From the NCBI GenBank assembly GCA_963755715.1, contig CAVWLW010000023.1, positions 11,396 to 75,395 of the forward strand: 64,000 nucleotides of DNA, in the 5' to 3' direction. Shown in pieces: positions 40,231 to 53,012 of the stretch (positions are counted from its first letter, which is position 1; every line of letters starts with the position of its first letter). This stretch comes from an uncultured delta proteobacterium (lineage in GTDB: Bacteria > Desulfobacterota > Binatia > UBA9968). A model generated the notes under the pieces. That model was not told the DNA's origin. It saw nothing but the letters and a program-made list of their open reading frames with translations, and searched no databases. The position numbers and the translations under genes were made by a program.

Positions 40231-40885
40231 GTGGACGAGGGATCTGCAAAGGTTAAAACACGCTGGAGCGATAGTCTGCGGCGCTACTTTCTCGCCGGAC
40301 TGCTCGTCTTTCTGCCACTGGCAATTACCCTTTGGTTTATCGGCTGGGTAATCGATTTATTGGATAGCGTGTTGGCGGTTCTGCCGGACGCGCTTCATCC
40401 GAATTCCTATCTGCCTTTTGCGATTCCTAAACTCGGCGCGGTCGTTACCTTATTACTGATTCTTTTTCTTGGCGTTCTTACCCGCGGCGTGGCGACACGG
40501 CGATTCCTCGCGGCATGGGAAAGTATCTTTATCCAAATTCCGGTGTTTCGCGGCATTTATACCGCCGTGCAAAAATTGGTGCAGACTTTCTTAGGCCAAT
40601 CGAATGCGCAGCGCCAGGTGGTCATGATCGAATATCCGCGCGATCGGCATGTTTACAGTGGGCTTTGCCATGGGCCGTGCCTGGTCGCATTTGGAAGAAA
40701 AGAAGAACGCCCAGCTGGTCAATGTCTTCGTTCCGACAACGCCGAATCCCACTTCTGGATTCTTTCTCCTCGTGCCCATCAACGAGGTAACCCTGCTTAA
40801 CATGACGATGGAAGAAGCGCTCAAGCTGATCACATCAAGCGGTCTAATCACGCCTGACGACAAGCTCAAGATCAATGGCCGCTAA
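40231..40885 (+). CDS. DUF502 membrane protein (frameshift near 40640)
   Basis: RRYFLAGLLV, IEYPR, second frame VFVPTTPNPTSGF. Confidence 0.85.
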
Positions 40886-41351
40886 GAAATCCGAGGCGCC
40901 GGGCGAGCAGATTGTCTGCGTCAATCGCCAGGCGCGCCATAACTACTTCATCGACGAGACCTACGAAGCGGGGCTGATTCTCGTCGGCAGCGAGGTGAAA
41001 TCGCTGCGCGACGGCAAAGCCAATCTGGTCGATAGCTACGCGCGCATTCAAAAAGGCGAAGCGTTTTTGGTCAATACCCATATCAGCCCCTACGCTGGGG
41101 CGAATCAGTTCAATCACGAGCCGACGCGCACGCGCAAGCTTTTGTTGCACGCACAAGAGATCGAGCGGCTCACCGGCAAAACCAAAGAGCGCGGCTTGAC
41201 CCTGATTCCGCTCAAGATCTATTTCAAAAACGGCCGGGCCAAAGTCGAATTGGGCCTCGCGCGCGGTAAGAAACTCTACGACAAGCGCGAGACACTCAGA
41301 CGCAAAGTCGCCGAGCGCGAAGTCGAGCGGTCAATCAAATCAAGAAACTGA
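40875..41351 (+). CDS. smpB: SsrA-binding protein
   Basis: NRQARHNY, EAGLILVGSEVKSLR, RTRKLLLH, GKKLYDKR. Confidence 0.97.
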   Translation: MAAKKSEAPGEQIVCVNRQARHNYFIDETYEAGLILVGSEVKSLRDGKANLVDSYARIQKGEAFLVNTHISPYAGANQFNHEPTRTRKLLLHAQEIERLTGKTKERGLTLIPLKIYFKNGRAKVELGLARGKKLYDKRETLRRKVAEREVERSIKSRN

Positions 41352-41445: not shown

Positions 41446-41798
41446 GGGGGCGATATGGGTTCGACGGAGGGTAGGAAGTCAGAGTGGCATGCCGGGTTCT
41501 GTTCACCCGTTAAACAAACAGATCTGCAATTTAAACGCAGACAATTTCGAATACTCCCTAGCTGCCTAATCGCAGTTAGCGTCTTACCGGCTTTCTCCCA
41601 CGGGGTTGGATAAGACGTCATTCAGTGGGATGGGCCGATTCTCCTGCCGGAGGGGATGAGGCTGAGATCCAAACCGGATGGCTCTGCGAGACCCAGCCGT
41701 TGGGGGCTCAAAGAGCGAGATCAAAACGGCGGCTAAGCATGTAGGCATATCTGATGGAAGACCTTCGGACGGGGGTTCGATTCCCCCCGCCTCCACCA
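41446..41798 (+). ncRNA. ssrA: tmRNA, tag peptide (A)ADNFEYSLAA* at 41537-41569
   Basis: 5' GGGGGCGATATGGGTTCGAC, 3' T-arm GGGGGTTCGATTCCCCC and CTCCACCA; adjacent to smpB. Confidence 0.96.
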
Positions 41799-43154: not shown

Positions 43155-43420
43155 CTATTGCGGCCAGGGCTTCTCTAAACTGACGATCCAGTCTCTCTCC
43201 CTCACCCACTTCCCGGGGCATTTCCCCTTATACTCAGTGCAATGGTAATAAACATATCTGCCTTTCTTGATTTCAGCGGTGAGCGCACAGCCGCAACGAC
43301 CGCAGGAAACCAGGCCCCGAAATGCCCAGTTGTGCTTTTGCGGCCGTGTTGGGTGACGCGAACTCTTCTCGGCAAAAACCGATTGGACCCGGTCAAAGAG
43401 ATCTATTGTAAACCATTTGA
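43155..43420 (-). pseudogene. Large serine recombinase fragment (zinc beta-ribbon region)
   Basis: DLFDRVQ...AFRGLVSCGRCGCALTAEIKKGRYVYYHC. Confidence 0.8.
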
Positions 43421-43539
43421 GTTGGCAGGGGGGGGACCCCTGTAAGAAGACTCGAACCCTATGTAACATTTCAATACGAGCGAAAACGGAATCTCAGCGG
43501 TAAGAAAATGAAACGAAGTGGAAATTCCGCTGCTTTTCG

Positions 43540-44661
43540 TTATGCCGTCTCGAGCAATTTGTCGAGACAAACACGCCAATCCATTGGCAAATGAACGAGC
43601 TCATTTCCTCCTCTCCAGGTAAGACCCTTCGTTGCAAAGGTTTGTTGGTAAGCCCACTGAGCTATTCGGGTCGATACTCCCAGATTATGGACAACGTGGG
43701 CCGAATCAAAGCGCAAGCGAAGTTCGTCGCTTAATCGGGCATTCCGCTCAGCCCATTTTTTTAGATGATCGTCGGCCGCAAGCATGTCCGCCTTCTTGAT
43801 ATTGCACGGACGCTCATGTGCGAGCACAAAGTTATGTCCCAAGTCGAATGGGTACAAAGCCCAGGGTATAAAGTGATCGACATCTGTAGAGCTTCGCCTT
43901 AAATTCTGGCCGCAGTAAAAGCATGATCCTTTTTGTAAGTCCCAGAGAATAGGAATGTAATCACCTAGACTGACTCGGTCTGTGCCGAATAGAAACCCAT
44001 TTAAATCGGTGGTTGTGCCAAGAACAGTATGGTTGAAACGCCGAATGTAACGGGCCCAACTTTCTCGAACGATGTCCGTCACCATCTGGTAAAATTTTCG
44101 AAAACAGAATGCGACTCCACTTTTGAGCACGATAACATTTGTTTTCTCTGCATCTGAATATAAAAATTCCAGATATTCACTACCCACCCTTTGAAGTTTC
44201 CACAACGGTTGCTTAATGACTGTCGCTGAAACCGCATTTACCAATCGCTTCCACTCTTGAGGCGCGGCTCGTCGGAGACTCTGGATATCCCGATGGTTCT
44301 CACGAATTCGAGCTATCAATCGCACGATCTCAGCCTGTGATCCAGTATTTTGTTGGAGAATTTTGCCGCTTTCTGTTTCTTTCCCTGAGATCGGTGGGAT
44401 GTAAGGCATAGTCTGCCTCCAATAATAAACGACGAACTTTTCGGCGATCTCGGAAATGTGCAATTTTAATGGACTGCCGGTATCGTCGCCTTTCTCGACG
44501 CACAAATCCGCCAATGCCGTAAGGAGAGCGTATTTGTATGTGGCAACAAATGCGCCTTCCTTGAGCAAACGCTGGATATTTATTAGAAACTCGATTTGCT
44601 TCTCAGCCGATGGCGCGACTACCGCTGAATCCAGTAAGCGGCTTTCTGTGGTATCACCCAT
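43540..44661 (-). CDS. HNH endonuclease with N-terminal helical domain
   Basis: N-terminal ATYKYALLTALADL; C-terminal CFYCG...DVDHFIPW...HNFVLAH..CN..K. Confidence 0.85.
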   Translation of the reverse strand: MGDTTESRLLDSAVVAPSAEKQIEFLINIQRLLKEGAFVATYKYALLTALADLCVEKGDDTGSPLKLHISEIAEKFVVYYWRQTMPYIPPISGKETESGKILQQNTGSQAEIVRLIARIRENHRDIQSLRRAAPQEWKRLVNAVSATVIKQPLWKLQRVGSEYLEFLYSDAEKTNVIVLKSGVAFCFRKFYQMVTDIVRESWARYIRRFNHTVLGTTTDLNGFLFGTDRVSLGDYIPILWDLQKGSCFYCGQNLRRSSTDVDHFIPWALYPFDLGHNFVLAHERPCNIKKADMLAADDHLKKWAERNARLSDELRLRFDSAHVVHNLGVSTRIAQWAYQQTFATKGLTWRGGNELVHLPMDWRVCLDKLLETA

Positions 44662-45017
44662 CTAACTCCACCTCTTGGATCAGGAACGTCTCCATCACGT
44701 CGCGGAATGATGTGGATGTGTGCATGCGGAACTGTTTGTCCAGCCAGGATTCCATCGTTAACCCCAACGTTGAAGTTGTGGACATTCAGTTTTGTCGCCA
44801 GCAAGTTTCGCACACGGCTAACAAAGACCCAGATATTTGCTTGTTCGTCTGGCGGCAGCTGAAACACCGTTGGCACATGCCGTCGGGGAATCACCACAAT
44901 ATGGCCGTCAGTGACGGGATATGCATCAAGAACGGCGAATGCTTCTAGATCTGAAACCACAATCCGGTCGGGATCTATTGCACAAAAAGGACACTCGGAT
45001 TCATTTGGTGTGGACAT
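44619..45017 (-). CDS. HIT family nucleotide hydrolase
   Basis: CPFC, DAYPVTDGH, AGQTVPHAHIHIIPR, DPRGGVRW. Confidence 0.92.
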   Translation of the reverse strand: MSTPNESECPFCAIDPDRIVVSDLEAFAVLDAYPVTDGHIVVIPRRHVPTVFQLPPDEQANIWVFVSRVRNLLATKLNVHNFNVGVNDGILAGQTVPHAHIHIIPRRDGDVPDPRGGVRWVIPQKAAYWIQR

Positions 45018-45035: not shown

Positions 45036-45198
45036 TCAATAACGCCGCTGTAAGCTTGTATCTACGTACGTATCAAACTCATCATTGAAAGCAAAGACGA
45101 TGGCTGGACTGACGGCGTTCGCATTCTTGTCTAGAGTGGTTTCGAATGTTGGCGCGCTTTCTTCTTCTGTCCGTCTGATAAACCTTCCCTCTCGCAGG
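45036..45198 (-). pseudogene. 3' remnant of a gene upstream of the HIT gene
   Basis: LREGRFIRR...YVDTSLQRRY* stops 18 bp before the HIT ATG; truncated by a transposase-derived fragment. Confidence 0.4.
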
Positions 45199-45199
45199 C

Positions 45200-45285
45200 T
45201 TGTCGGGCAAAAGCTGACCCGGCGGTCCATCGAGACGGTGGCGAGAGAGCTGGCGAAGCTATTGAAAATTGACGTCCAGGCGCTG
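45200..45285 (+). repeat. Near-identical copy of an internal segment of the RAYT gene (47872-47958)
   Basis: gacccggcggtccatcgagacggtggcgagagagctggcgaagctattgaaa(a/g)ttgacgtccaggcgctg occurs at both sites. Confidence 0.9.
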
Positions 45286-45413
45286 TGGAGTGACGCGTCG
45301 TTCAGTTCAATCGTGCGGTATGCATTGCAAGCGGTCTCGTTTTTTGTGAGGTCGAAAAGAGAAAACGTGATATACTGCCCGGACATTCGGCAGTTAACTT
45401 ATCAGTTGCCTAG

Positions 45414-45826
45414 ATGAGATTACGAGTGTTCGTCACGCTCGGCATCGGCGCAACGGCTGTATCGCTGTGGCTCTGGGTTGCCGTCTCAGCCGGTCAAATC
45501 GTCTGCAACGTTGTAACCGGTGCCCTGATCATCGCGCAGGACGGCAAGATACATTCCTAGGGAAGATCACCAACAGCTTTGACAGCGAGTCGATATTCAA
45601 TGAGTTTGGGACGTACGGGAACGAATTCAGTTCGAGCTCTATCTGGAACCAGTCCTCTACCTTCGGGAACGAGTTCAGCCCTTACTCTCCGTTCAACGCG
45701 TTCTCGACGACTCCGCCAATGATCATCAAAGATCGTAACGTTCTCGGCTATCTCACGCCGAACAAGAGCATTCGGTCGTCGATCTCGCCGAACGTGCTCA
45801 AAGCGCTATGCAAGGACGCGTTGTGA
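45414..45826 (+). CDS. Secreted hypothetical protein with SIFNEFGTYG / SIWNQSSTFG repeats (frameshift near 45550); probable gene cassette
   Basis: Hydrophobic N-terminus MRLRVFVTLGIG; internal repeats; attC-like site just after the stop. Confidence 0.6.
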
Positions 45827-45835
45827 CACAGGCGA

Positions 45836-45909
45836 ACGTAACTTCACGATTCAGGCCGATACCGAAACGTTTACCGGTCTGGTCAACGGCCAAATGAATC
45901 GGGTTATGT
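45836..45909 (+). other. attC-like recombination site (degenerate)
   Basis: ACGTAAC ... CGATTCA/TGAATCG ... GTTATGT; L'-R' spacer is abnormally short. Confidence 0.5.
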
Positions 45910-46050
45910 TCATGGAGAGGGTCTTTCGGAATGTTTCTGCGGCTCACAGCGGAATCTGCCGAACACCGAGCGGCTTGCAAGCGTTATTAGGGAGCGTCAT
46001 GTGACGTGCGCAACCATGCGTGGGCGGTAGTTCTGCATGGGGAGGTGTTC

Positions 46051-47028
46051 ATGGAAGCGAGCATAAAGCTTCGGCTAGGAAATCTGTTCGATGGTCCCGC
46101 TGATCTCATCGCCCTACCGTGTTCAACCGGAGGAACTATCACAGGTTTTGTTGCTCGTTCGCTTGTGGACTATGCGATTCCGCATCCGCGGGCAGGTATG
46201 TCATTGGGGGAAGTGGAGATTCTTCCCTTTGAAGGAGGTGGTGACATCGCTCAGTTTGTCGCCTTCGCTGCCTCTGTCCGTCGTGATGCATCAACCCCAA
46301 CGGCAATTGAAACCATCGGCGGAAAGCTCGGTGCTTTCACTAAAGCGGAAGCCTCGGTCAGAAAAATCTCTACGCCGCTTTTGGGTGCCGGCGCTGGTGG
46401 ACTGCAGAGCGAAGTCGTCGTAGCCGCACTGAAGCGCGGATTCGTATCTGCTGCGCACCCATCAGCAACGCTTGTTATTCACATCCTGCATCAAGACCTA
46501 TACGAACGCCTTAAAGGCAATCGTAGTGTCTTGCATGGCAAGCCAAAACAGGACGTCCGAGTTTTCATTAGTCACACATCGAAGACCAATGAAGATGTCG
46601 AATGGGTGAAAGGGCTGGCCTTGTTCCTTATTGAGCAAGGCATCCAAGCTCGTCTTGACAAGTTTCATTTGAGGCGGGGAATGGACCTTCCCCAATGGAT
46701 GTGCAATGAGTTGGCATTGGCTCAAAAAGTCATCGTTATTTGCGATGAGACATATAAGCAAAAGGCGGACGGTCGGCTCGGTGGCGTCGGATGGGAAACC
46801 ATGATTATTCAAGGCGATATAGCTAACCTGCCTCCTGATAGCACCAAGTATCAGGTTGTGGTCCGAGCCCATGAACTGCAGAAGGGCTTGCCCTTGTATC
46901 TCAAAACCCGCTATGCATTCCACGCTCCCGACCCAGGTGGTGACGTGTCGTTTCGCGCTGAACTCGTCCGCGAATTGCTCGATCTACCGATCGACCCAGT
47001 GCTAGAAACTAAAGAGTTTCATCTGTGA
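46051..47028 (+). CDS. Macrodomain-like N-terminus fused to SEFIR/TIR domain
   Basis: GGAGG RBS; GNLFD..ADLIALPC and PLLGAGAGGL (macro-like); RVFISH..WV..LA..L...GI...LD..L..G.DLPQWM...GGVGWE (SEFIR/TIR). Confidence 0.78.
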   Translation: MEASIKLRLGNLFDGPADLIALPCSTGGTITGFVARSLVDYAIPHPRAGMSLGEVEILPFEGGGDIAQFVAFAASVRRDASTPTAIETIGGKLGAFTKAEASVRKISTPLLGAGAGGLQSEVVVAALKRGFVSAAHPSATLVIHILHQDLYERLKGNRSVLHGKPKQDVRVFISHTSKTNEDVEWVKGLALFLIEQGIQARLDKFHLRRGMDLPQWMCNELALAQKVIVICDETYKQKADGRLGGVGWETMIIQGDIANLPPDSTKYQVVVRAHELQKGLPLYLKTRYAFHAPDPGGDVSFRAELVRELLDLPIDPVLETKEFHL

Positions 47029-47035
47029 ATCTGAC

Positions 47036-47116
47036 GCGCAACCATGCCTTGCACCGGACGCTTCACCAGCGGCGCTTCGTTTGCTGGTTTCGCGCCCGTG
47101 AAGGCAGACGTTATGC
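47036..47116 (+). other. attC recombination site
   Basis: R'' GCGCAAC, L'' TGCCTTGCAC pairs with L' GTGAAGGCA with extrahelical base, R' GTTATGC; 7 bp after the stop codon. Confidence 0.72.
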
Positions 47117-47191
47117 AGCATGGGCGGCGACGCAGGTGAATGGAGAACGACGGTAAGCCGTCACCGCGAGAGATGATGAAGGAAAAACTAT

Positions 47192-48189
47192 GGGGTCAGA
47201 CTTCTACAAATTGACTATCTCGATTCACCTTGATATGGACTTGCATCATGGCGCGCCGTCCCCGACTATTTGCCGCAGGGGTTCTCTATCACGTGATTGT
47301 GCGAGGCAACCAGCGGCAGAAGACCTTCACTGCGGAAAGTGATTATCAGGCCTATATCGAACGGCTGGCACGGTACCGTAAGAAATATGACTATGTGTTG
47401 CACGCCTACTGCCTGATGCCCAACCATGTCCATCTGCTCGTTGAAAGCTCCGAACAGCCACTGGCGAAATTCATGCAAGGGCTGCAACAATCTTACAGCC
47501 AATATTTCAATCTTAGACATCGCAAGACCGGACACGTGTTTGAAGGGCGCTACAAAGCGATCCTTTGCCAGAAAGACCAGTATCTCCTTCAGCTGATCCG
47601 TTATATTCATCTCAACCCGGTGCGCGCCGGCATGGTAAGAAGTCCGAAGCGCTATCGGTACTCGGGGGATCACGTTTATCTGCAGGGGAAGGCTACGGAA
47701 ACCATAGATCCGGCGACGGTTCTATCGATGTTGGGAGGGAAACAGGCCTATCGAAGGTTTGTTCAAGACGGTTTGAGCGAAGGGCATAAGGAGGAATACT
47801 ATGCGGTGGAGGACCAAAGATTTCTAGGCGCCGAAGGGTTCGGCGCAAGGTTGCTGAAGAAGGAAGCGGGTTTGTCGGGCAAAAAGCCGACCCGGCGGTC
47901 CATCGAGACGGTGGCGAGAGAGCTGGCGAAGCTATTGAAAGTTGACGTCCAGGCGCTGCGTAGTCCGGATCGGGGTTGGGCGATATCGAAAGCGCGCACG
48001 ATAGCGGCGTACGTATTGGTTCGGAGACTGGGCTACCGGTTAAGCGATGTGGCGGCCTATTTTGGCAGAGACATGGCGACACTCGCGACCTTGCTCGCAC
48101 GGCTGAGCGATCGGGTGCAAGCCAATGATACGGCCAGACGGGAGATCGAGCGGCTGAACGAGATAGTTGAGTCGTAGAAGTCTGACCCC
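47192..48189 (+). mobile_element. HUH-transposase element with perfect 16-bp terminal inverted repeats
   Basis: GGGGTCAGACTTCTAC (47192-47207) and GTAGAAGTCTGACCCC (48174-48189) bracket the transposase gene. Confidence 0.75.
47248..48177 (+). CDS. REP-associated tyrosine (Y1/HUH) transposase with C-terminal HTH
   Basis: MARRPR, YHVIVRGN, AYCLMPNHVHLL, GHVFEGRY, YIHLNPVRAG. Confidence 0.9.
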   Translation: MARRPRLFAAGVLYHVIVRGNQRQKTFTAESDYQAYIERLARYRKKYDYVLHAYCLMPNHVHLLVESSEQPLAKFMQGLQQSYSQYFNLRHRKTGHVFEGRYKAILCQKDQYLLQLIRYIHLNPVRAGMVRSPKRYRYSGDHVYLQGKATETIDPATVLSMLGGKQAYRRFVQDGLSEGHKEEYYAVEDQRFLGAEGFGARLLKKEAGLSGKKPTRRSIETVARELAKLLKVDVQALRSPDRGWAISKARTIAAYVLVRRLGYRLSDVAAYFGRDMATLATLLARLSDRVQANDTARREIERLNEIVES

Positions 48190-48245
48190 GTAATTTCCTG
48201 TTGACATTGCGGGGCCTGCAAGTTAGCGTTCGATGGGAGGTCCCA

Positions 48246-51699: not shown

Positions 51700-52149
51700 T
51701 CAGCGGCGCGTGGTGCGGATGTAGATCTCGATCTCCTCGTAGGTGAGCACGCCGTCCTTATCGCGATCGGCGGAATCGAAATCCTTGAAGAGGGCGTTGA
51801 CGTATTCTTGCAGGGAGAGCCGGCCGTCACCATCCCGGTCGGCCGCGCGGAAGCCCTCGGCGCTCAGCTCGGTCAGCTCCGCGATGACCAGGTAGCCGTC
51901 CTTGTCGCGATCGCGAAAGAAGAACGCCTCGACGATCACGCGGTGAAACTCCTCCCGGTCGAGCGTGTGGTCGCTGTTCCGATCATAGTTCTTGAAGATC
52001 TGGCCCAGGTCGGATGGCCCCGGCGCCTGGGCGGACGCTGAGAACGCGGCCATGACGACGAGGGACAGGACGGCGAGGCTCGCCCACCACCAGGGACGCG
52101 CGCCGGGCACGAGTCGGCGGACCATCTCAGCCCACCTTCCAGCTGCCAT
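51700..52149 (-). CDS. Secreted EF-hand protein
   Basis: DRNSDHTLDREE, DRDKDGYL, DRDGDGRLSLQE, DRDKDGVLTYEE. Confidence 0.85.
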   Translation of the reverse strand: MAAGRWAEMVRRLVPGARPWWWASLAVLSLVVMAAFSASAQAPGPSDLGQIFKNYDRNSDHTLDREEFHRVIVEAFFFRDRDKDGYLVIAELTELSAEGFRAADRDGDGRLSLQEYVNALFKDFDSADRDKDGVLTYEEIEIYIRTTRR

Positions 52150-52633
52150 CGGGCTGACGGCACGCCGTCCCGTACGACTGTTCCTGCTTGCCCCCGATGG
52201 TCACGGTCTGTTGATACTCGCGGCAGTAGGTCCCACCGGACTGGTACGTTCGGATGGGTGTCACGGAGCCGGAATGACCGCTGTCGGGGTTGTTCCACGC
52301 CACGCTCTGGCCCGACGGGGTCGTTTCCAGCGCGCGGTTTTGGCTTTGCGCCGCCATGCGCTTGTCTCGCTCGTCGAGCATGTTGCCCACGAGCCCACCG
52401 ACCAGGGCGCCTCCGACCACGCCCGCGGCGATGGCCGCACCCCCGCCTCCTGCGGCGCCCGCGATGAGGCCACCGAGCGCTGCCCCGCCCAGCCCCCCGA
52501 TCGCCGTCTTGGTGCCGACGTCGCCAGTGGCGCAGCCGGCGATCAGGACGAGGAGAACGGCAAGTGTGATGCCCTTGAACACCGGCGAGCGCGTTGGACC
52601 CGGCTGCGAATGCGCTTCGATCGTCTGTGTCAT
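52127..52633 (-). CDS. 17-kDa surface antigen-like glycine-zipper lipoprotein (RT0821/Lpp0805 family)
   Basis: Lipobox IAGC, glycine zipper, WNNPDSG, CREYQQTV.IGG...YGTACRQPDGSW. Confidence 0.9.
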   Translation of the reverse strand: MTQTIEAHSQPGPTRSPVFKGITLAVLLVLIAGCATGDVGTKTAIGGLGGAALGGLIAGAAGGGGAAIAAGVVGGALVGGLVGNMLDERDKRMAAQSQNRALETTPSGQSVAWNNPDSGHSGSVTPIRTYQSGGTYCREYQQTVTIGGKQEQSYGTACRQPDGSWKVG

Positions 52634-53012
52634 CGTGTGATGCGCCCTGCTCGAACGGATAGGATTTTTAAACGACCTTTTTTATAGCCCGGAGCTATAT
52701 CGCAGGACCGGGAGAGATGTCAAATTTTTCTGCCGTCGGCTTGCGTTGGCAAGCGGTTTTCGACTGTCAGATTGTCTGGAATAGATCGACTTGACGAGCT
52801 GAGCTTCCCTCACAGTCTCCGCTTTACAGGTTCATTCGCGACCTGAACAGGATCGCCAGCATGACCAGTCAGCCGAACAGATCAAAAAATATAAAAAGAG
52901 GTTCGGTGAGATCCCTGAAGCGGATTAGTACGAACCTTTGTCCGTGAGGCCGTGTATGAATGCGATTCATTCAGCCCGGTTGTCTCCAGATGTGACACTA
53001 ACCGTCTCATTA

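Follow-up and report, generated by a model that had tools for sequence, protein, structure and literature searches.

A gene in an uncultured delta proteobacterium (GTDB lineage Bacteria; Desulfobacterota; Binatia; UBA9968) raises the question of what a single polypeptide that joins a divergent macrodomain to a SEFIR domain, and is followed by an attC-type recombination site, does for the cell that carries it. The gene (macro-SEFIR, P0001) lies at 46051-47028 on the plus strand of the window, by which is meant the whole stretch of 64,000 nucleotides (nt) analysed here (contig CAVWLW010000023.1, positions 11,396 to 75,395, assembly GCA_963755715.1; contig C23 in what follows). The answer favoured by comparison with known systems, with moderate confidence, is that it may encode a ligand-gated, self-contained and mobile abortive-infection protein that would target nicotinamide adenine dinucleotide (NAD+).

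The open reading frame (ORF) is intact and encodes 325 amino acids (aa), its stop codon included at 47026-47028, and a Shine-Dalgarno sequence, GGAGG, stands at 46041-46045 on the same strand, 5 nt ahead of the ATG. The intact frame and strong ribosome-binding site described in a sequence-only reading of this DNA are thus borne out. That reading also placed a macrodomain in the N-terminal half, on the motifs GNLFD (aa 10-14), LIALPC (aa 19-24) and PLLGAGAGGL (aa 109-118), and a SEFIR or TIR domain with a glutamate in GGVGWE (aa 244-249) in the C-terminal half; the motifs are present, and the profile matches given below agree with both assignments. The predicted structure of the protein consists of two globular domains, and a two-copy homodimer prediction (alignment A3), made without its controls, scored 0.00 against a mark of 0.42, from which nothing is concluded.

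The C-terminal domain (aa 168-316; 46552-46998, plus strand) belongs to the TIR superfamily, and matches Pfam SEFIR (2.1e-10) more strongly than TIR_2 (3.4e-9). The PADLOC model for bSEFIR matches the same residues at 3.1e-37, covering only positions 38-187 of the 412 in the model, and a profile of 80 family members finds its best relative in the PDB in the Bacillus cereus SEFIR domain (5y8e, 4.4e-32), with TIR domains at 1e-14 or weaker. Psychrobacillus bSEFIRs are 39-45% identical to the domain, and a canonical 483-aa bSEFIR of that genus (L005; PADLOC 1.5e-97, spanning model positions 35-361) has in common with the window protein the pattern VICDETYKQKADG..GGVG.ET. The glutamate of GGVGWE, E249 (46795-46797), is conserved as Glu in 68 of the 80 aligned members and is likely to be the catalytic residue of the SEFIR half.

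The N-terminal half (aa 1-165; 46051-46545, plus strand) is a macrodomain fold, with the three-layer alpha/beta/alpha arrangement, even if it has no match in Pfam, NCBIfam or PADLOC at E values up to 1. A profile built from 27 N-domain sequences matches the Thermus macrodomain protein TTHA0132 (2dx6) at 1.3e-5 over 130 residues and, weakly, the macrodomains of alphavirus nsP3, YmdB and DarG; searches of a protein atlas gave scores of at most 0.87, taken as leads only, with one named cluster, 'Macro'. Conservation in the 80-sequence alignment is concentrated at D18 (46102-46104; 77 of 80), at P23, C24 and S25 of the P23-C24-S25-T26 segment (80, 72 and 77 of 80, respectively), and in the loop from P109 to L118, where G112 and G116 are invariant (80 of 80) and the whole of P109-L-L-G-x-G-x-G116 is nearly so. 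When aligned with 2dx6, D18 falls on the Asp of GDAIV and the P109 loop on FPLLGTGVGG; the D18 position and this Gly-rich loop 2 we take to be the adenine and diphosphate contacts of macrodomains. The MacroD catalytic-Asn motif N-A-A-N is replaced, the aligned positions reading L-P-C-S-T-x-G-T, and Gly-rich loop 1 is not kept. Because D18 and the loop are retained while the catalytic Asn and Gly-rich loop 1 are gone, a pocket of the ADP-ribose (ADPR) type is probable, and a mechanism of the MacroD type improbable.

Searched on its own, the macrodomain retrieves 355 clusters at E ≤ 1e-3, and a Pfam scan, tallied manually, took in 149 of the best 150, the remaining one being the fusion's own cluster. 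A TIR-superfamily domain is present in 59 of the 149 representatives, in either order relative to the macrodomain: SEFIR or TIR_2 partners are mostly C-terminal to it, and CAP12/Pycsar-type TIR domains N-terminal. Other domains accompany it in 18 (EAD1, EAD5 and EAD7 adaptors, KAP NTPase, CHAT, PNP with EAD7, DUF4062, DUF2203, kinase-GGDEF and a few others), and the other 72, mostly short, have no Pfam domain. At E values up to 1e-4, no Pfam family was reported with its best stretch on the N-domain of any of the 149. A virulence-type secreted TIR protein was considered as a candidate for the window gene and rejected, the partners being immune-type and the family being found in soil and sediment bacteria.

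The gene is followed by an 81-nt attC-type site (47036-47116, plus strand) that begins 7 nt past the stop codon with the R'' core GCGCAAC (47036-47042) and ends with the R' core GTTATGC (47110-47116). Each core is one base off the consensus, RYYYAAC or GTTRRRY, and folding of the bottom strand gives a single long, imperfect hairpin of the integron attC shape, in which two bases bulge out on the R''/L'' side. The folding energy is not above that of shuffled sequences (z of -0.79 for the bottom strand and 0.13 for the top), and the case for an attC therefore rests on architecture and on homologues. A crude finder, requiring NNNNAAC and GTTNNNN cores 48-144 nt apart and a fold across the hairpin, matched about once per 3.4 kb over the whole window as background. 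At the 78 homologue loci with enough downstream DNA, it found an attC-like site beginning at most 45 nt past the stop in 13, and in none of 78 reverse-strand or 78 coding controls; a stricter version found such sites at 6 of the 78. Five homologue attCs share the 7-nt offset and have textbook cores such as GCCTAAC/GTTAGGC (L002, L018/L020 and L021, with L025 at 9 nt), and the attC site proposed 7 bp after the window gene is in keeping with them. Ahead of the start codon, a GTTRRRY core lies within 10-80 nt at 13 of 64 distinct loci, a modest enrichment over the 3, 6 and 2 of 64 in controls.

The 5' edge of the window cassette can be read in the same manner. The 12-mer GCGCAACCATGC is present both at 46008-46019 and at 47036-47047, and the upstream copy abuts GTGGGC, giving an R''-like GCGCAAC, CATGC and an R' box minus one T at 46008-46025 on the plus strand. 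The window gene and one homologue locus (L043) have a common leader, CTGCATGGGGAGG, preceded in L043 by the R' box GTTGGGC, with which GTGGGC was aligned by eye. Because the upstream copy and GTGGGC line up with the R' box and leader of L043, the proposal that the 5' segment is a collapsed attC remnant is a reasonable one. Elsewhere in the family, L002 belongs to a series of short ORFs on one strand, as is usual in cassette arrays, and L016 and L021 are likewise in arrays. Integron cassettes make up a minority of the family, the window copy among them; the majority cannot be recognised as such. The earlier description of an integron-type cassette is hence sustained for the ORF with its attC, but the gene does not lie in an integron here, and most of its homologues have no recognisable attC.

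Full-length relatives number 737 at E ≤ 1e-3, and a length of exactly 325 aa is shared by 106 of the best 120. The latter are 68-78% identical, although the sources named for them include Geobacter, Pseudolysobacter, Paraburkholderia, Caldilineaceae and Thiodiazotropha, among others. Within the genus, one of 24 other genomes has the fusion, at 69% identity; in a sample of 400 other genomes of the phylum, the macrodomain turned up in just one at E ≤ 1e-8; and a genome-contig scan with the single protein as query gave only 4 full-length loci. Among 72,556 plasmid and 50,697 phage records, no full-length homologue was found, the matches being to the SEFIR domain only. This distribution, patchy and cross-phylum, is that of a rare accessory gene that appears to spread horizontally.

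A Pfam scan of gene neighbourhoods covered 150 of 172 selected ORFs at 20 loci, L002, L057, L068, L085 and L086 (array members or duplicates), L087, L095 and most of L084 being left out. Conflict-type neighbours, borne out in part by a further scan, are found at five of the 20 loci. In three cases they are directly upstream of the macro-SEFIR homologue: a SLATT and TIR pair (L022, 1763-4430), a TIR protein with a transmembrane (TM) segment (L043, 3985-4863; PADLOC TIR-TM, 5e-59), and a 1270-aa TIR-SLOG-CHAT protein (L062, 1145-4954). In the other two cases, the neighbours are a double-TIR protein, an Mrr type IV enzyme and an HNH protein (L021), and an IetA-like ATPase (L041).

The favoured mechanism borrows its output from bSEFIR. 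According to the reports on that system, bSEFIR protects against phi29 and depletes NAD+ through its N-terminal SEFIR domain, yielding ADPR and nicotinamide, and the mutant D40A of its preprint bears on SEFIR-SEFIR contacts and not on catalysis. Because the window SEFIR domain is kin to that of bSEFIR, it is inferred to be an effector with NAD+-cleaving (NADase) activity: assembled protomers would cleave NAD+ to ADPR and nicotinamide, and the loss of NAD+ would starve an infecting phage in an abortive infection. The macrodomain would take the place of the C-terminal sensor of bSEFIR, and most likely would bind either a ligand of the ADPR family or a target that carries ADP-ribose, thereby gating the assembly or activity of the SEFIR domain. 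This ligand-gated reading is favoured because a macrodomain stands in the place of the bSEFIR sensor and keeps an ADPR-type pocket. The gene itself would move as an integron cassette, consisting of the ORF and its attC, and would here be stranded outside an integron, in an island.

Several observations weigh against this reading. Regarding the domains, Pfam Macro (PF01661) and related models do not match the macrodomain half, which has P-C-S-T instead of N-A-A-N, and the 2dx6 alignment is the only source of the ADPR-binding proposal. In 12 of the 80 aligned members, of TIR_2 type, the glutamate lies three columns further on, which is the canonical W+4 position, and for this reason E249 is called a candidate catalytic residue. 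The inter-domain geometry in the predicted structure is uncertain (pTM 0.56), and macro-only proteins fused to EAD adaptors suggest that the macrodomain itself can be an effector. As for mobility and context, an attC-like site follows the stop at just 13 of the 78 homologue loci, convincingly so at about 9, and a hairpin test upstream of the homologues told nothing either way (4 of 62, with 7 of 62 for the reverse-strand control). Fifteen of the 20 neighbourhoods have no defence-type gene: five of these have integrase or transposase genes, and the rest have housekeeping genes or genes of unknown type. The expectation that homologues would be found near defence genes or attC sites thus holds for five neighbourhoods and 13 loci, and not for the remaining majority. 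Expression is a further concern, as no sigma-70-like promoter was found at 45400-47300, and the cassette may therefore be poorly expressed outside an integron. Two metatranscriptome runs of one study contain exact contigs within the ORF (46282-46432 and 46543-46693 in one run, 46045-46237 in the other), a weak hint of transcription, with DNA carry-over possible. A comparison of the metatranscriptome contigs with the flanks gave no piece of at least 31 nt; contigs X1 and X5 of the DNA runs cover parts of the compared stretch, and the gaps carry no inference.

Set beside known systems, the window protein is likewise a single gene with a closely related SEFIR domain and a presumed output of NAD+ depletion when compared with bSEFIR (Bacillus sp. 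NIO-1130; DefenseFinder, PADLOC). However, bSEFIR instances are defined in the describing preprint by an N-terminal SEFIR domain, whereas that of the window protein is C-terminal, within 325 rather than 483 aa; the C-terminal domain of about 300 aa in bSEFIR is absent, and a macrodomain precedes the SEFIR domain. Type II Thoeris (the TIR protein ThsB and the Macro-TM protein ThsA) also pairs a TIR-superfamily domain and a macrodomain around ADPR chemistry. Type II Thoeris consists of two genes with a membrane effector, whereas the window has one polypeptide without a membrane effector or a ThsA or ThsB profile match, and its TIR-type domain looks more like an NADase effector than like an enzyme that makes signals. 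Because it lacks an N-terminal SEFIR domain, a full-length bSEFIR match and the two-gene Thoeris layout, the window protein is a member of neither system, while on this comparison it would work like both. It differs from the sensor-fused TIR NADases TIR-STING, TIR-SAVED, the CARF-TIR protein Cat1 and the TIR-APAZ arrangement of SPARTA in having a macrodomain as its putative sensor, and no cyclase or Argonaute gene accompanies it. The macrodomain is 10-17% identical to those of TTHA0132 and the DarG/TARG1, Af1521 and alphavirus nsP3 types, from which the change of N-A-A-N to P-C-S-T sets it apart.

The view that the gene is not a named system stands, in that no described system matched it over full length, the PADLOC bSEFIR match covering aa 168-316 only. 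A search that left most subscription journals and preprint supplements outside turned up no macro-SEFIR or macro-TIR fusion described as a defence system, so that a prior listing is possible; in the literature searched, Macro domains are named only generically, as effector-type domains of NAD-linked conflict systems. Integron cassettes encoding phage defence systems have been reported, and the portions of that literature searched do not mention the macro-SEFIR family. The window gene is like those cassettes in being a single ORF followed by an attC, and unlike them in that the contig has no integrase or attI and the gene has an IS200-like element for a neighbour, within an island linked to the tmRNA gene.

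Of the alternatives, the one that survives best, though unlikely, is a two-enzyme effector, in which a catalytic macrodomain processes the SEFIR product or a phage ADPR compound, or erases phage ADP-ribosylation. Such a macrodomain might remove a 1''-phosphate, a pyrophosphate or a conjugate while the SEFIR domain depletes NAD+. The nearly invariant C24 and S25 stand exactly at the position of the MacroD catalytic Asn, which would suit an enzyme, and the macro-only relatives are fused to EAD1, EAD5 and EAD7 adaptors in the usual effector position. The literature further counts Macro domains among the enzymes acting on ADP-ribose or NAD+ in conflict systems, and describes phages that rebuild NAD+ from ADPR via ADPR-pyrophosphate, which would give such an activity a target. 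Yet the canonical Asn and Gly-rich loop 1 are absent, and no Cys or Ser mechanism for a macrodomain hydrolase was found in the literature searched.

A fused circuit of the Thoeris kind is quite improbable. Here the SEFIR/TIR domain would make an ADPR-derived signal that the macrodomains of neighbouring protomers receive, creating a feed-forward, all-or-none switch. The fusion of TIR-type domains and macrodomains in both orders, in 59 of 149 representatives, fits such an arrangement, but a downstream killing module such as a TM or SIR2 domain is lacking, no PADLOC ThsA or ThsB model matches at E values up to 1, and the SEFIR domain is nearest to an NAD+-depleting effector and not to the signal-making ThsB.

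A role outside phage defence is given a similarly slim chance. The gene could be a cis-acting addiction module, or a toxin and its antidote in one, in which the macrodomain would neutralise the toxic SEFIR domain and whose effect would be to keep cassette arrays and islands stable; or it could be a housekeeping regulator of NAD and ADPR metabolism. The antidote of DarTG is a macrodomain, and pairs of Sir2 and Macro are known; moreover, cassette arrays often carry toxin-antitoxin genes, for instance the DUF4160/DUF2442 cassettes near the homologue in L016, and many homologues lie among housekeeping genes. Against this, a fused toxin and antidote cannot yield post-segregational killing by differential stability, a rare and patchy family does not fit housekeeping, and the domain partners are immune-type. 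The notion that the cassette is a silent relic, stranded without integrase or promoter and nonfunctional in this genome, is scarcely credible: the contig has no intI-like match, the sole strong one in the genome (on contig C45) is broken across three frames, the search for a promoter-like site came up empty and the upstream attC is collapsed, but the ORF is intact with a good ribosome-binding site and all family-invariant residues, and RNA libraries contain exact contigs within it.

The locus is a degraded island linked to the transfer-messenger RNA (tmRNA) gene, and no integron. Just upstream lie smpB (40875-41348) and the tmRNA gene (41446-41798; tag ADNFEYSLAA), followed in order by a recombinase zinc-ribbon fragment, HNH-like and HIT genes, a truncated Y1 transposase copy, a 119-aa ORF, a hairpin, the macro-SEFIR cassette and an IS200-like element. 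A search for a direct repeat of the tmRNA 3' end that would delimit the island found none. The setting had been described as one of decayed genes, which is correct for the zinc-ribbon fragment (43158-43469) and the truncated transposase copy (45194-45291), and incorrect for the HNH-like and HIT genes, which are intact. These two genes, on the minus strand at 43543-45017, overlap by about 40 nt and encode 373 aa (Pfam HNH_4, weak) and 132 aa; the HIT protein matches the PADLOC 'ThsC' HIT model at 1.1e-13, and the two may be a two-gene defence pair.

The IS200-like element (47185-48196) encodes a 315-aa Y1 transposase fused to a DnaA_C-type helix-turn-helix domain, and has 38-nt inverted repeats. 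In soil DNA runs its contig depth is about 10-fold that of the flanks, which suggests that it is multicopy. The fragment at 45194-45291 is 95% identical to the 3' part of the element. With this 3' fragment upstream and the full element downstream, two cassettes lie between element copies, the first of which is possibly formed by the 119-aa ORF (45467-45826; no Pfam or PADLOC match) and a 74-nt palindromic attC-like hairpin (45836-45909; ACGTAAC...GTTATGT) that begins 10 nt past its stop; the hairpin is found on both strands and is uncertain as an attC. At most this one further attC-like hairpin lies nearby, and the macro-SEFIR cassette is not in an array beside intI or attI. Among 15 matches listed for an integron-integrase model in the genome, none is on C23. 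The best, on contig C45 (103861-105087; L007, L008), matches TIGR02249 in three frames at 250.6, 151.6 and 35.4 bits, and this split gene near a contig end is either a pseudogene or an assembly error; near it are one attC-like hairpin, at the contig end (107099-107161), and no array. Further along the window, at 52000-52600, the G+C content peaks locally at 0.71, the surroundings being at about 0.53, and a 231-aa ORF without a Pfam match (51992-52687) overlaps this peak.

The family bears on the means by which single-protein NADase defences sense infection, for in it the sensor of bSEFIR appears to have been swapped for a small domain with a predictable nucleotide pocket. The trigger thus becomes testable with defined ligands and with point mutants at D18, C24/S25, the G112/G116 loop and E249. 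A bolder and rather doubtful proposal is that the macrodomain family is dedicated to reading or processing an ADPR-derived molecule that appears only in the course of infection, and that its fusion to SEFIR makes a one-protein guard circuit; the molecule could be the product of a phage ADP-ribosyltransferase, or the ADPR-pyrophosphate of phage NAD+ reconstitution. If this were true, the guard would fire NAD+ depletion upon phage tampering with ADPR, or would destroy an intermediate needed to rebuild NAD+, and EAD/STAND, KAP and DUF4062 systems would draw on the same module, a general ADPR sensor of bacterial immunity. With the family, the integron gene pool gains a candidate defence cassette that is compact (about 1.1 kb) and found across phyla. 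The macrodomain of the family, unannotated in Pfam, NCBIfam and PADLOC, recurs with TIR, CAP12-type TIR, DUF4062, PNP, EAD adaptors and KAP NTPases, and its ligand, once defined, could explain a whole set of systems.
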